Positions 9,653-40,957 of a stretch of DNA of 64,000 nt are shown here, piece by piece. How positions within the stretch are numbered: the stretch's first letter is position 1; every line of letters begins with the position of its first letter. The DNA is from Octopus sinensis (Eukaryota), in NCBI RefSeq assembly GCF_006345805.1, contig NC_043011.1, forward strand, positions 47,752,464 to 47,816,463. The letters are read 5' to 3'. The notes beneath the pieces are model-generated. The model saw only the letters and a list, made by a program, of their open reading frames with translations. It did not search any database and was not told the origin of the DNA. The position numbers were made by a program, and so were the translations under genes.

Positions 9653-12091
9653 CTAGCAGAATTTCCGGCGATGCTCGGGGCTGAATTGCTTGAAAGTACT
9701 GTTAATGATTGCACTGAATTATGATGATTATTCAGGCAAATATTGATATAAGTTTACGGCGAATGAATGTATTTGTAAGTGTATAGAAAGCCGTGTAAAG
9801 GGGTTCCTACCCCCTCGTAGAATGGTGTAAGAATTGAATGCGAGGTTGCCTTGAAAAGAGCCATGTTATTGTTGTCATAATTGTAAGAATTTGATAGTCG
9901 TGGAAGGCGGTGTAAAACGTTCGCAGGTGAATAGGGTCTCTTCGTTTTCCACCGAACATGTACGTATGCATGTATATGTATGTATGTATGCCTGTATATA
10001 TGTACAAAATCCACTGAGATGGCTTTTGTTGGTCTGAAGCTACAGCAGAAGACACATGCCAAGTCACCACATAGTGGGACTGAACCCAGGACCATGTGTT
10101 TGGAACGTAGTTTGTTACCACACAGCCACACCTGCCTCTATGTATGTGTGTGTGTGTGTGTCTGCGTATGTGTGTATGGGTAGATATATTATGCATGTAT
10201 ATATGTGTATATATATATGTGTACATATTACATGTACATCTATATATATACATCTACACATAAAATACAAAATTATATCTTGATATCGCTAGCGATAACA
10301 ATACTCAAAATATATAACAGACTGGAATTGTAGGCCCGTCTCTTGCAATTTCGATCAATTGCATCTTGTCCTCCCTCTTGTATAGAAGTTTACGGCTGCA
10401 GCGAAATTCATTTTTGGACTTTCTTCTATCGAAGGCATTTTAACAAAAATGCTTCCGTAAAGACGGTGAAAATATTGTCAATTTCCCCAAAGAGGGACAC
10501 AATTCAATTTTTAACAATAACCAAAGCCCCTTCTCCGAAAGGGGGAGGGTTACGGTTTACAATTATTTAACAAATGCAACACAACAACGTTTCCCTGACG
10601 AGGAACCAAGAAACGTGATTACAATAGTCAAACAGTAATAATAATAACAACAAACCTTTTTAAATTATCCCCATTTATGTGAAACCCCTTATTCAAGTTC
10701 AAGTCATTCATGCAATTTTATACAATTGCTAATACACACACATACACATAATAAGGGTGACTATTAATGGCTCATCCCTGTTATATATACTTTCACTTTA
10801 ATAGTTTCACACTTGCAAAGAGAAAGTAGGAGAAAGTGTGGTGGTTATAGCAGGAGTAAACCACTTGAAATGAGAGAGGCAAATCGTAAAATATTGAGTT
10901 TTCTCGAAATTTTGCTTAATTGGGGGTCAAATTGAAAAAACTTTACATGCCATGACCCAATCGAATCTACTTGGAAAAATTCCAATTGAAGAAATTCAAT
11001 ATTGTAGAATTGTATTAAAAAGGAACATGGGAACAGGCAGAGAAAATCTGCCATGGAATCCCACCTTATTAATAAATACAGACCACTTCTAAACACATCC
11101 CCCTAACACGAACCCACAACAAATACACTTACACCTGCACACACTTTTACCCAGATATTAACACCATGACACACGCAAATATATGGTTCCACACATACAC
11201 ATAATTTGATACGGGTGCAAAACATCCAACACTATTTTTTGGAAATGACTGTAAATATTGACTTCACACAAACACGTTGCTTCCCGATACAGGCACAAGG
11301 CCAGCAGAACTATAAATATTGAAAATTGTACCCACACACGCACACATATATACACGCGCGCGCGCCCCAACATACATATAAACACACGCGCGCGCGCACA
11401 CATACATACATATAGCTCTTCCTGTCCTAAACGAACTTACTTATCCAGCTCAAATTCAGTCAAGCGGAAAATACACTCCTTAACTACGCGCTAAAAAGCT
11501 ATTTAAAATATTCACATGCCGTCTACTGACCAGCCTGAACAATAAGAATTTTCAACAACGCTATTTTCGAAAACTCCATACACCACCCACACCAACATTC
11601 ATTATAAACATTCACGTGACCTCTCTATTATGACCACATCCACGTGACCTCTTTATTATGACCAATAAGAAATTTTAGGCGTGACACTAGCCAAATTTTA
11701 ACATCTCTGGAGCCAATATTCTTACCCCAACACCAACTTCCATTCAAACATTCACGTGACCCCTTTATAATGACCAATCAAAATTGTATTGACCATTGTC
11801 CACAAGAAATTTTAGGCGCGAAACCAAGCAAACCTTAAACAACTCTGGAGCCTCTTTTTCACATATAAGAGACAGCAAACCCAACATAAAGTCAGATAAG
11901 AGAAAAAATCTATCAGAAAGGAACTCTATCTCTCTTAAAAAAATATTTTTTGATAAGCATAACAAATGCGCAACCGGTAAAAAGAACTTCCACCTAATTA
12001 AATACACTCTCCCTTACTTAAATTATTTTGTCAGCATTTTCTTCATTTCCTTTTTTTATATATCACAACTCGTGTCCACATCTCCTTTTTT

Positions 12092-12100
<9 letters not shown>
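9653..12100 (-). mobile_element. Probable larger non-autonomous Helitron (3' end certain, 5' end not located)
   Basis: A|CTAGCAGAATTTCCGGCGATGCTCGGG equals a minus-strand hairpin + CTAG|T terminus like the three short Helitrons; extent to ~12.1 kb is inferred. Confidence 0.45.
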
Positions 12101-12158
<58 letters not shown>

Positions 12159-12322
12159 GGTGAGAAAATTGGTGTGTGAAAGCACGTGGTTGAATATATA
12201 GAAAATAGTAAAAAGTGAAAAAAACTACACAAGGCTTGTTTTAAAAGGTTAAAAAATATATATTTGAGTCATTATGTCTGAAGAATGTTATAAATTATTT
12301 TCATACAATGACATAGCTTTTG

Positions 12323-12362
12323 AAGAAATGACCAGTTTCGCGTTCAGCTTTTCAAATTTCTT
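12323..12362 (-). ncRNA. Minimal type I hammerhead motif, U3-A8 variant (second copy on + at 12614-12653)
   Basis: AAGAAAT-TTGAAAA-GC TGAAC GC-GAAAC TG GTC-ATTTCTT: 7-bp stem I, 2-bp stem II, minimal stem III, GUC site. Confidence 0.7.
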
Positions 12363-12454
12363 ACATCGTTATGTTTACGTTGAGAAGTGTGAAGAGAAGT
12401 TCCAGATAAGGGGAGGTAATAAGTGATTTCTTCCGGTGTAAGGGAGATAATTGC

Positions 12455-12577
12455 TTAATATTTCTTGCCTTTTTTTTGGAGTGAGTTTCTCTGTATAAGA
12501 ATGTTGGAAAAGTTAAGTTTGGGCTTGTGTTTTTCAATGAAGAATGTTTCCTTGTTTAGTCTAATTTGTGTTGGTGT
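12455..12577 (-). pseudogene. GIY-YIG endonuclease C-terminal fragment (Penelope-like)
   Basis: Translates TPTQIRLNKETFFIEKHKPKLNFSNILIQRNSLQKKGKKY*; matches the R-x-x-K-E-x-x-x-I-x-x-x-x-P-x-L-N GIY-YIG end motif. Confidence 0.75.
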
Positions 12578-12859
12578 TCCTCTTCACACTTCTCAACGTA
12601 AACATAACGATGTAAGAAATTTGAAAAGCTGAACGCGAAACCGGTCATTACTTCAAAAACTATGTCATTGTATGAAAATAATTTATAACATTCTTCAGAC
12701 ATAATGAGTCAAATATATATATTTTTAACCTTTTAAAACAAGCCTTGTGTAGTTTTTTCACTTTTTACTATTTTCTATATATATATATATAATTCTCCAT
12801 CATCTGAAATTATATGAACTATTAGTAGATGGAAATTCCCTCAAGGAGTTTTAAAAATC

Positions 12860-13321
12860 TAAACCTCTAAATCAAGTGCCTGGAGGAGATACTGCTGCTC
12901 TGGGTCAAGAGGGTAGCTGCTGGATGATCCTATGTCTGGCAACAGGACTCTGCACCACCATGCTGTACAAGCAGGAGAGCCCAGTCATGGCTGTCAGACA
13001 ATTTCTGCGACCACATCACCCCTAACATCTGGCCTCCTAACTCCCCAGACTGCAACCCCTTGATTATATATGTGGCATGCTGTTGAACGAGAGACAAACA
13101 AAACTCCTTGTAACATCGAAGATTAACTGAAGGTAAGCATTATTGCTGAATTCACCAACTTAACCAAGGAGACTGTCCAGAAAAGTTGCAAGTGATTCCG
13201 AAGTGGTCTGGAGGCTGTGACTGAGGCCAATGGGGATTTAATTGAATAAATTTATTCTTTAGCATTTTAATATCAGTATTATTTTCATTTTTGCCTAAAA
13301 TATATTCATGGCGCCCTGTAC
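12860..13321 (+). mobile_element. Decayed Tc1/mariner-superfamily (maT/DD37D-like) transposase 3' part
   Basis: Reads YVWQQDSAP...SWLSDNFCDHITPNIWPPNSPDCNPL with frameshifts and stops; ends GGCGCCCTG|TA. Confidence 0.7.
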
Positions 13322-17770: not shown

Positions 17771-19072
17771 TCTTTCCATGGAGATTTCACAAAATTTTGT
17801 CAATAACTCGTTTGATATTTGAATGTGAAGAAAATTTCCTCCGTCGCGTGAGGATTACCCCTTCCCTCAATTAGCCAAAACCCCACATTTTGAGATAGGG
17901 ATATAGTTGAATCAGTCGAGGACAATATTTAACTAGTTTATTTAATCCACGCAGAAAGGATAAATGGTAAGGTAAATCCCAGTACGATTTGAACCCGGAA
18001 CGTCAAGAAACGTAGTTACGCAGTATTTGATTTGTACTTTTTTTATCTGCTTTACACATCCGTATAATGGTGATAATAGTGATTTGTAACAGAGGTACGA
18101 GATCAGAGATTTGGGAGCGGGGTATAATCAAACAAATCGATATCAGTACGTGATTGGTATTTATTTTAACAGGTCAAGCGACTACGTAGAAGCTATTGCG
18201 TCGGCATTGTTTGTTGTTATTGTTGTTCCAAGTGCATTTCCTTCCATTTACAGAAACTTCAAAACGTGTAAGACAACTCGAAAACACCAGAGATAAATAT
18301 AGTTAAACGTTAATCAATAAAGTCTTTAACACAGCCAGGAAACGTTTAGGCCTGTTTAAAAAAAAAATTATCTAAAAATAGTGGAAGGTGAATTTTTATA
18401 CGCATCAGAAAACGATTGAAAAATTATTTATTTCTACATAAAACCCAGTTGATTATTGATGTGTAAATGACTGAAATACCTTATTTAGGAAAGAAAAAAT
18501 AAAATAAATGTTGTTTTGGTTAACCTTAATTATAAAATTTTTACTACAGATTCTACTAAAAAGAAAATTACAAGTAAATTTGTTATGGACAGGAATGGTT
18601 GTAATGTTTTCAGTAGTGAATTCACTTAAAAATTAACAATTACCATACTTGAAAAAAATAATTCAAAATAAAAAGTGAAACGAGTTTTAGCCAAACGAAT
18701 GAAAAATAGGTTTGTTGTAATTAAATGAACAACTGCTTTAAAATTCATTTAGGTTTGTTGATTCTTCTTCTTCCAAATAAGCGGTGAGAAAATTTTTTTC
18801 CTCTCTTTGTTAACAAATTAAGACAAACAGTCTACGTATATTATTAAAATCAACACATTTACAACAAACCTGTAAATAAGTTATTGCACAAGATATTATT
18901 TGTAGATTTCCTCATACAGGAAAAAAAGAAAATGTCTTGGAAGCAGGGTCGTGGCTGAAGATGTTGAGTGAACTAAACGAATACAAATGAATAGAAGTCG
19001 AACAAACGACGAAGACAGACTTCTAGAAATAACAGCCAAATATCCTCAAATTACATCCATTGACATTGAACA

Positions 19073-20213
19073 ATTGTTTTATTACTACCCACAAAGGGCG
19101 AACACAGAGGGGACAATACAACCTCTGTGCCTCCCCGATCAGACCATCCGCGACACGCGCCAATCTTTTCGATAACACTTTGGCCAAAATCTTCAACTCT
19201 GTGTTTAGCAGAGTGATGGGCCTGAAATTATCAATGCACTCCCCCTTGTTCGGGTCCTTTCTGACAAGCGTCACTACTCCCCCGCGCACAGATCTGGGAA
19301 TGAACCCGTTCTGCTGCCAATTCGCGTAGACCTCCGTCAGTAGGTGCCCGAACAAGTCTGACATACTCTTATATAACTCATAGGGTAGACCATCCAAACC
19401 TGGCGCCTTGCCCGCGCCGCAGTCCGCCATCGCCTCCGCCACTTCCTCAGGCGTGATTGACCCTTCACAGCCCTCCGCATCTCGCCCCGATAGGCGCGGC
19501 AGCCCGTCGAGGAGGTCCGTAAAGACCCTCCTTCTATCCAGTCCGCCGCCCCCACCGAAAAGCTGAGCGAAGTGCTCCTGAAAGGCCTCACACATCTCCT
19601 CGGGTTCGTTTATCAACTTACCTTGTTGGTTTGTCAAAGATCGAATCGTGGCATCATTACCACGCTGAGCTTCCACCACTCGGGCCCATCTCACGGCGTT
19701 GATTCCCTCACAACCCATTGCGCGGATCCTAGCCCTGACAATGCAGCCCATGTGTTTGGCCTCGAGGTGCTGGTTTAACGCCAGTCTCTTGGCCTTCACA
19801 TGATCCGCAGAGCCAGTTCTCATGGCTTCCTCTAATTCCTTAGCTAAAGTTGAATCCCTCCTAGCCTCTCTAGCCACTAATCCTATGCTATATCTAATAG
19901 ACTCGAATTTGATGGCTCGCTTGAGGGTATACCACCATTTGTTATTAATGATGGCACCATATAGCGCCCTCTGAATTATAGTCCTAATCCGGTCTCTGTA
20001 CTCCTTAATCGCCAAAAAGGACGTATTAAGTTTCCAATAACCGGAGCCTCTATTATTAACCTTATCTATGTCAAGCTTACAGGGCACCATTTTATGATCA
20101 CTGTAGCTGACCGGGTAAAACTGTGGACACTTAGCTATTTCTCTGTCTACTTTTCTAATTAGTATTCTATCTATGTATGACCTGGAAGATCCGTCGCTGC
20201 TTGACCATGTCCA
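19073..20213 (-). mobile_element. Tx1/L1-clade LINE fragment (endonuclease end, linker, RT start) joined to a 52-bp 3' tail
   Basis: Open frame WTWS...SRSYIDRIL...SYSDHKMV...GYWKLN...KAPGLDGLPYELY...NFRPITLLNTELKILAK...GEAQ. Confidence 0.9.
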
Positions 20214-21392
20214 TAAAAGCCCTTAATGGTGTCTTTGTAACAGCTTTCTCATAGTTTGTAGATCTGAGTAGCATTTCCATGACTAGCACGAATAAGATTA
20301 CTGATATCGTGCATCCGGCTGCAATCCCTATTTCAAGCCGTTGCCACTCCGTTGTGAACTTTCCTGCTGTAAATCTCATCCTCAGGTTGTCGTAGTACGA
20401 CATGAGCATTCGTTGAACATCTTTTGGAATCCAAAAGAAGTCCATCGCTGTTTTTATTATTGCGTGCGGAACAGATCCATAAGCATTGACAAGATCTAGC
20501 CAAACAATATACAGGTTTTTCTTCATTTGTTTTGCACAGGTGATGGCTTCCCAGATGGAAAATGCGTTTTCAATGCACCCAGTGATTCCTGCTTTTTGGA
20601 TTGCTTCATTAACGTACCCGTTATTCTGTACGAATCTCATGATTCGTCTAGCAATTATTCCAAACATAATTTTCCCGTCTGTATTTAGTAGTGAAATTAG
20701 TCTAAATTGGCCCAGTGTTTTTGCCTCTTTTTCTTTAGGTAGATAGATACCTTCGGCTATACACCATCGCTCCGCTACATCTTTCTTCTTCCACATTTCT
20801 CTTATCAGTGCAAACAGCTGCAAGCGTAATTTCGGCCAATATTTATATACCTTGTAGCTCACTCCATCGTTCCCTGGTACACTTTTCGCTCTTGGTTTCC
20901 TTATGAACTCATCCATTTCTTTCCGTTTGATGTCACTCAAATCAAATGGTACTCTTGGTTCAGGTGGTTTCTTCAGTCCGTGCATTTCTGGGAGTACTTC
21001 ATTTCTGTCAGAGTCGCTGTATGTCTCTTTCAGATGTTGTTCGAGCTCTTCTTTCGTGCAATCCAATTTTCCGCTTTTACTTTCAGTAAATAGATGTTTC
21101 GCATATTGATAGGGATTGTTCACAAAGCTACGATGGGTTATTTTCTCTCTCCTTTCTTCTGCTCCTCCTTCTTTGTTTTCTTAGCAGATCTCGATGCCTC
21201 TTTTTTTATCTCTTCATACAGCTGCTTTAGCCCTTCTCTTTCCTCCTCCTTTGCATCCCTCCATCTGGTTCTCTGAGTTTTTTCTTCTCTTCTCGAATCT
21301 TTGCGATCCGTCTTTCTCTCCTCGATGGTCCGCTCTTTGCTGTTGATTCTACCTTCCCTGTTGTTTCCAGTCCAAATCTTTTCTCTCCTTCC
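20209..21392 (-). mobile_element. HERO-clade (R2-group) LINE reverse transcriptase fragment
   Basis: PGNDGVSYKVYK, QFRLISLLN, QKAG..GC, WLDLVNAYGSVPH, WQRLEIGIAAGCTIS, ends at RAFMD. Confidence 0.85.
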
Positions 21393-40664: not shown

Positions 40665-40957
40665 TGGTTGTATACTGTCAATCTAACGTGAACGTGACAG
40701 TAGGGGGTTACACCACCGCTGTTTAGCCCTAGGAAGCTTCAACGCTTCCTGATGGCTTCGACACATTTTTCCTGTGTCCTTATATACATTTACGAAGGGG
40801 AGACACTGGGGGTGTTTGTCTCCCCTTCGTAAATGTATATAAGGACACAGGAAAAATGTGTCGAAGCCATCAGTAAGCGTCGATGCTTCCTAGGGCTAAA
40901 CAGCGGTGGTGTAACCCCCTACTGTCACGTTCACGTTAGATTGACAGTATATAACCA
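40665..40957. mobile_element. Foldback element / MITE, ~140-bp inverted arms, 11-nt spacer
   Basis: 40665-40805 is the reverse complement of 40817-40957 with about 4 mismatches. Confidence 0.85.

Follow-up and report, generated by a model that had tools for sequence, protein, structure and literature searches.

Two inverted copies of the end of one repeat lie within a TA microsatellite in the DNA analysed here (the window, a stretch of 64 kb), and each copy carries a small hammerhead motif in which UUGAAAA replaces CUGANGA. The locus raises the question of what kind of element leaves such a structure, whether the altered core marks a decaying ribozyme or a change that keeps the core paired, and how the inversion came about. 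The two arms were aligned by blastn in inverted orientation over 204 columns with 97.06% identity (E = 6e-94); four substitutions and two indels of one base each separate them. Read along the minus strand, the tailless inverted arm leads to a junction at 12580, which is followed by 41 codons and a stop, 58 untranslated bases, the hammerhead-bearing sense arm, a 35-nt tail and finally (TA)n (Table 1). We consider it very probable that this 632-bp piece of an abundant repeat family is a 5′-truncated, partly inverted insertion of an endonuclease-bearing Penelope-like element (PLE) into (TA)n, and that its terminal repeat contains a minimal type I hammerhead in which U3-A8 is family-wide; the inversion would have originated from two start sites.

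Table 1. Features of the locus, and unrelated hammerhead-like motifs found in other sequences. Positions are those of the window unless a contig is named.
Feature	Position	Strand	Basis or remark
Left (TA)n tract	12096..12158		20 + 11 TA units with one interruption; likely insertion target
35-nt tail, at one end only	12159..12193	-	Outside the shared arm
Sense pLTR arm, the 3′ end of the element	12194..12396	-	blastn match to the other arm
Minimal type I hammerhead motif, minus copy	12323..12362	-	Descriptor match; U3 at 12355, A8 at 12350, predicted cleavage after C17 at 12330
Untranslated stretch from ORF stop to pLTR arm	12397..12454	-	Sequence; belongs to the repeat family by contig coverage
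ORF 3′ end of 41 codons plus stop, truncated at the inversion; likely the C-terminus of a PLE GIY-YIG endonuclease	12455..12580	-	Motif order by eye; excess of synonymous polymorphism
Inversion junction, single shared base	12580		Contigs depart from the window sequence here in 4 of 4 runs
Inverted, 5′-truncated pLTR arm, tailless	12580..12782	+	Arm alignment
Minimal type I hammerhead motif, plus copy	12614..12653	+	Descriptor match; U3 at 12621, A8 at 12626, C17 at 12646
Right (TA)8 tract	12776..12791		Overlaps the TA-rich end of the inverted arm
U3-A8 hammerhead-like motif, unrelated	L032:688-717	+	Open frame starts shortly downstream
U3-A8 hammerhead-like motif, unrelated	L049:256-286	+	Metagenome contig
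U3-A8 hammerhead-like motif, unrelated	L119	-	Second partial motif copy in the same contig

The motif spans 40 nt. Between the two strands of stem I, the first of them 7 nt long, lie, in order, UUGAAAA, a GC/GC stem II closing a 5-nt loop, GAAA, four bases and UC. Stem II carries G10.1-C11.1 and extends over merely 2 bp; A9 directly adjoins G10.1, so that the extra base typical of metazoan PLE hammerheads is absent, and helix III amounts to one base pair in a region of 4 nt. All seven pairs of stem I can form in the minus copy, and the plus copy has one A-A mismatch, at position 12650. The palindrome ACCGGU in the helix III region is intact in the plus copy only, being broken in the minus copy by a change at 12334. 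C3 and G8 pair with each other in the active hammerhead fold, and U3-A8 preserves this pairing. The sequence-only reading had reported UUGAAAA in inverted arms of about 200 bp, a perfect 7-bp stem I in the minus copy, a GC/GC stem II, retention of GAAA and GUC, and ACCGGT in the plus copy. All of these were confirmed by the sequence, and both arms were matched by a U3-A8 descriptor.

Descriptor searches were compared with a null of 200 third-order Markov simulations of the 64-kb window. A U3-A8 descriptor requiring a Watson-Crick stem I of at least 5 bp gave 0.005 chance matches per 64 kb, and a strict version, to which G10.1-C11.1 and a C-G pair at 15.2-16.2 were added, was satisfied in none of the 200 simulated windows. 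It could be argued that the motif is a chance likeness to a hammerhead in AT-rich DNA, since a looser descriptor (stem I of at least 3 bp, G-U pairs allowed) found three more U3-A8 matches elsewhere in the window, with stem I of at most 4 bp, and since Rfam at E ≤ 10 returned two matches, both of microRNA type, and none to a hammerhead family. The empty result of the strict descriptor in the simulations argues against such an accident, as does the location of the motif, which occupies the usual place of a PLE hammerhead between the end of the ORF and the tail. At the level of the window-wide null the chance explanation is refuted, and we find it scarcely credible. A CUGANGA descriptor had no match in the window; as both this descriptor and Rfam failed to find a hammerhead, standard searches miss the motif, which is what the sequence-only reading had foreseen for the family.

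Contigs from public sequencing runs were aligned to the element at 80% likeness, in seven different runs over two regions. Region 12160-12600 was covered in four of the 24 runs listed (X1, X2, X5 and X8, all of DNA type, from four organisms), and region 12575-13100 in four runs. Between 386 and 1,956 contigs per run matched 12160-12600 in all four runs, with family-level depth over tail, arm and spacer. In the large runs the summed depth over the motif exceeded 100,000, compared with about 7-12 at the unique flank 12809-12826, depth being a different quantity from copy number. The repeat family is very abundant. A second repeat, to the right of the element at 12866-13065 on the plus strand, is even more abundant in the contigs. 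The motif was also covered by contigs in two runs guessed to be RNA, a result that is uninformative on transcription or cleavage.

Coverage of the tail and the junction distinguishes what belongs to the family from what belongs to this locus. The one-sided tail was covered at family-level depth in all four runs, and is therefore part of the repeat. At 12580, by contrast, the contigs of all four runs leave the window sequence and continue into other sequence that they share, so the inversion is a property of this insertion, and family sequence continues upstream of it. The long inverted arms, each ending in TA, would also suit a non-autonomous, MITE-like foldback DNA element, whose 200-bp arms would be terminal inverted repeats moving as a unit. 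For such an element the junction should be the family norm, and it is not; moreover, only one side has a tail, a truncated coding frame occupies the spacer and no further copy of the element was found within the window. We therefore regard a foldback element as highly improbable. The inverted pLTRs, the 5′ truncation and the one-sided 35-nt tail match the layout described for endonuclease-bearing PLEs, of which this would be a truncated copy with a sense stub of only 421 nt, lacking the telomerase-related reverse transcriptase of such elements.

The sequence-only reading had held U3-A8 to be a compensatory double change rather than decay, and this can be judged from the family. Variant tables comprised 40 listed rows of 50 for region 12160-12600, and for region 12575-13100 there were 93 rows beyond those listed. 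Among the 40 rows listed for the former region, none fell within the core at 12349-12355. A reversion to C3 would read as A>G at 12355 and a reversion to G8 as T>C at 12350. The listed rows account for all places with A>G in X2, X5 and X8, and for all places with T>C in X1, X2 and X8. Because these tallies are fully explained by rows elsewhere, C3 and G8 would each make up less than 3% of the depth in X2 and X8, a figure that applies to contigs, which drop rare variants. Neither a CUGANGA consensus nor a loss of the stems was seen in the runs examined. These results support U3-A8 as the normal, fixed state of the family, and the compensatory interpretation holds at family level.

The same data indicate that the two defects noted above are private to this locus. 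The palindromic letter at 12334 is present in 98.7-99.7% of the family depth (region 12160-12600), and the letter that pairs in stem I at 12650 in 94.6-100% (region 12575-13100). The family motif thus has both an intact stem I and an intact palindrome, and each arm here bears one private lesion. The sole polymorphism within the 40-nt motif among the listed rows is C17/A17 (12330 and 12646), with a frequency of 0.7-45% in region 12160-12600 and 14-88% in region 12575-13100. The cleavage rule NUH requires H at position 17, and the polymorphism stays within H, so that the rule is kept. The C/A share at this position varies widely between runs, from 0.7 to 88%, and may be a subfamily marker.

The spacer was claimed to encode a GIY-YIG C-terminus. 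In the minus-strand frame 12458-12580 (41 codons), the residues R..E..I..P.LN occur in this order, and a by-eye comparison with Fig. S7 of PMC8557442 shows that the order fits the conserved end of the PLE endonuclease. Of 17 family polymorphisms listed in 12455-12530, excluding three near-fixed private letters, 10 are at third positions and all 10 of these are synonymous; the expected synonymous share is 0.19, or 0.26 when transitions are weighted (P = 0.0007 at a share of 0.21, and 0.025 at 0.33). This synonymous bias supports a coding past for the spacer frame. Protein searches did not recognise the 41-residue piece. Against longer proteins there were three candidates, none at E ≤ 10, and no match was found among near-length proteins, 1.84 billion representatives, Pfam or PDB; PHROGs returned a single unannotated family (E = 0.32). 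All Atlas matches scored below 0.9, with a GIY-YIG cluster, in which 53% of the members carry PF19835, below threshold at 0.76 and rank 25. The piece is likely a GIY-YIG C-terminus, on the strength of motif order and synonymous bias. The frame stops 18 codons after LN, and the hammerhead motif and tail then follow. Since 10-22% of the family depth reads through the stop at 12457, the exact stop of the family is uncertain.

The arms also bear on how the inversion arose. Two letters common to both arms (12230/12747 and 12297/12679) are absent from 98.8-99.96% of the family depth, which suggests that the arms derive from one parent element or molecule and hence from one parent template. The shared letters could also stem from a rare subfamily or from subsequent conversion of one arm by the other. 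A third shared rare letter, at 12396, was rejected, as the region is polymorphic and thinly covered. ADAR hyperediting was considered as well and left no signature: among 12 listed near-private letters of the window there was one A-to-G change per strand.

The course that we propose for this locus is one of double priming. The endonuclease of the element would nick the TA tract on both of its strands, and the element's reverse transcriptase would prime twice on RNA from one parent element. A first cDNA, primed at the end of the tail, would run for 421 nt, and a second, primed about 35 nt further in at the TA-rich stretch, for about 203 nt; the two would then be joined head to head at 12580 through one shared base. 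A conceivable, though doubtful, alternative is snap-back copying, in which a single cDNA made from the tail to 12580 would fold back at 12396 and be copied as far as the internal TA-rich stretch, which would anneal to the (TA)n target. Such a course accounts for the two shared rare letters without a second RNA, and the inverted arm does end in TA repeats matching the target. A single shared base at the junction, however, offers little for fold-back priming, and the one-sided tail is explained by the two start sites that have been described in vitro (PMC11167929). Snap-back copying would alter only the mechanism of inversion and leave the identity of the element the same. At one locus double priming, snap-back copying and later gene conversion are indistinguishable; loci whose shared rare letters show the parentage of the arms could provide a test of double priming against snap-back. 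According to the passages of PMC8557442 on this subject, the route by which PLEs acquire inverted ends is still open, and among the titles and opening lines of abstracts surveyed we found no report of PLE inversion by twin priming or template switching.

The predicted folds bear on whether the motif could be active. For the isolated monomers, a stem II pair probability of 0.22 and 0.08 was predicted in the two copies, and stem I was unformed in the plus copy. An intermolecular helix III duplex was predicted at -9.7 kcal/mol with the palindrome and at -4.6 kcal/mol without it. The sequence-only reading took ACCGGT to suit dimeric folding. The pair of motifs at this locus cannot dimerise in cis, because their strands are opposite and any one transcript has only one of them in sense. 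In the predicted fold of the whole element the opposite arm pairs with either motif (-344.6 and -322.2 kcal/mol), so that a long hairpin is expected to bury the motif in a read-through RNA. Given one private lesion per motif and this pairing with the opposite arm, the copy at this locus is probably inert, irrespective of any activity in the family. Where elements stand intact in tandem, self-cleavage after GUC (or GUA) would likely depend either on a second copy of the motif, providing helix III through ACCGGU, or on help from the element's protein.

Whether the family motif is itself maintained for cleavage is a separate matter. It might be a relic with little or no catalytic activity left, which became fixed in a single founder and was amplified along with the element, without selection for cleavage. 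The short stem II and helix III and the weak folding of the monomer fit a relic. So does the distribution of polymorphism, in which conservation beyond that of the flanks was not found: by a hand count of the rows listed, one row was polymorphic in the 40 nt of the motif, where about three are expected from 13 in the remaining 163 nt of the arm. Even dimers of metazoan PLE hammerheads are poor at cleavage (PMC4209133). In vitro, PLE insertion was unaffected by hammerhead mutations, and no RNA ends mapped to the cleavage site (PMC11167929). On the other side, both departures from the canonical core fall exactly on the 3-8 pair and restore its pairing, the remaining core positions are intact, and the polymorphism at position 17 stays within the permitted letters; hammerheads with U3-A8 have also been reported to be active in vitro (PMC3088659, citing its ref. 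32). We judge a relic to be possible and somewhat unlikely. With equal reserve, we entertain the idea that a natural hammerhead of unusually small size has become fixed in a very abundant PLE family of animals. At 40 nt, with two base pairs in stem II, one in helix III and the weaker pair U3-A8, it would be obligately dimeric or protein-dependent, and inverted stubs from one parent with two fixed start sites might form a genome-wide in vivo record of two-ended priming.

Relatives of the motif were sought in other sequences. The U3-A8 pattern matched at least 120 metagenome stretches and four viral stretches, and both stems were at least 4 bp long in three of the 124 matches listed (L032, L049 and L119), against 0.13 expected. 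These three show no likeness to the present family (best blastn E = 0.13, best tblastn E = 0.74), and by eye they contain no endonuclease end. The remaining 121 matches listed were dropped as chance, and L079 proved to be a bacterial insertion-sequence-like contig. Covariation of the stems across the three metagenome motifs and the two arms (84% paired, with seven of nine pairs changed on both sides) was set aside as circular, the sequences having been chosen for pairing.

The window as a whole is animal-type DNA rich in microsatellites and SINE-like repeats, and its repeats are reminiscent of octopus genomes. An imperfect direct repeat of about 130 bp with CACGTGACC units was seen by eye at 11590-11860. 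To the right of the element, the frame 12928-13086 contains a WPPNSPD motif, as in Tc1/mariner transposases, and had no Pfam match at E 0.1. Two adjoining long frames at 19023-21180 on the minus strand match the reverse transcriptase family RVT_1 (E = 0.018 and 4e-14) and are likely LINE fragments of different families. A near-perfect hairpin at 40665-40957, with arms of 141 bp that are 97% complementary and 11 nt apart, contains no match to the hammerhead descriptor.

The locus is a further, probably inactive example of a kind that is already known, PLE families whose hammerhead has a U3-A8 core. The sequence-only reading implied that the U3-A8 core was novel, and in this it was mistaken. Natural covariation to U3-A8 in hammerhead cores was reported in 2011 (PMC3088659, Perreault et al.); the examples given there have the same compensatory change at positions 3 and 8, and the passages concerned do not tie them to PLEs. 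In PLE hammerheads, U3-A8 in place of C3-G8 was described for the Cercyon PLEs of Schistosoma mansoni, where the kind of U3-A8 descriptor search that had been proposed for the present family was already carried out, with about 1,300 matches (PMC4209133, Cervera and De la Pena 2014). The undercounting of U3-A8 motifs by Rfam models and by descriptors limited to CUGANGA, which is confirmed here, has accordingly been in print since 2014. In the literature on PLE hammerheads we found no publication on this particular repeat family, which may be listed by Lunse et al. among dimeric PLE hammerhead variants.

As an insertion, the element closely resembles the endonuclease-bearing PLEs described by Craig et al. 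(PMC8557442, 2021), which form inverted 5′-truncated copies with a one-sided tail of 30-40 bp in (TA)n targets. Here, likewise, the 5′ copy is inverted and truncated, the 35-nt tail is found at one end and the (TA)n target lacks a discernible duplication; the difference is that only the sense stub is available, so that the clade cannot be fixed. Neptune, Nematis and Penelope/Poseidon are recognised by reverse transcriptase phylogeny and by the linker Zn-finger, which lie outside this stub. Probes from the element matched only unrelated sequences in the parts of the PMC8557442 supplement that were searched. Two clades were considered and rejected. The Hydra clade is marked by a canonical C3-G8 hammerhead and by an endonuclease in which a CxxC precedes, and a CxH follows, the conserved E and N (PMC8557442); the frame in the window has no CxH after LN, the Hydra hammerheads listed in File S2 of that paper all begin with CUGA, and the hammerhead of Hydra-1_Obim listed there differs in sequence from that of this family. 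The Naiad clade has an N-terminal endonuclease followed by the reverse transcriptase and no canonical hammerhead, whereas here the frame ends soon after LN and is followed by hammerhead and tail.

The anole element PAc (Poseidon, Anolis carolinensis) provides a biochemical counterpart. In purified form, its protein cleaves AT-rich DNA on both strands, extends them, and initiates reverse transcription at two neighbouring internal sites, one on each side of the tail (PMC11167929, Frangieh et al. 2024); the model of two start sites applied here derives from that work. The hammerhead of this element depended on the element's protein, and insertion in vitro could proceed without the hammerhead (PMC11167929). 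PAc shares with the present element the order of hammerhead then tail and an AT-rich target. In contrast, PAc has C3-G8 and an ORF that starts inside the hammerhead; the present motif has U3-A8 and contains no ATG at which an ORF of at least 30 codons begins.

The closest parallel for the motif is offered by the S. mansoni families. Minimal hammerheads have been reported to occur in pairs, with 100-700 bp between them and in opposite orientation (PMC4209133), and metazoan PLE hammerheads with a 1-bp helix III are thought to act as dimers and to cleave slowly (PMC4209133; review PMC6765202). An extra base between positions 9 and 10.1 is a recurring trait that lies outside the descriptor of that paper (PMC4209133). 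Like the element described here, the Cercyon PLEs carry a minimal type I motif in the terminal repeat, with U3-A8, G10.1-C11.1 and a palindromic 15.2-16.2 region. The two differ in the proportions of their stems, with a stem II of 2 bp and a stem I of 7 bp here, compared with a helix II of 7-8 bp and a helix I of 4-5 bp in the S. mansoni families, and in the usual extra base between 9 and 10.1, which is present in the S. mansoni motifs and absent from this one.
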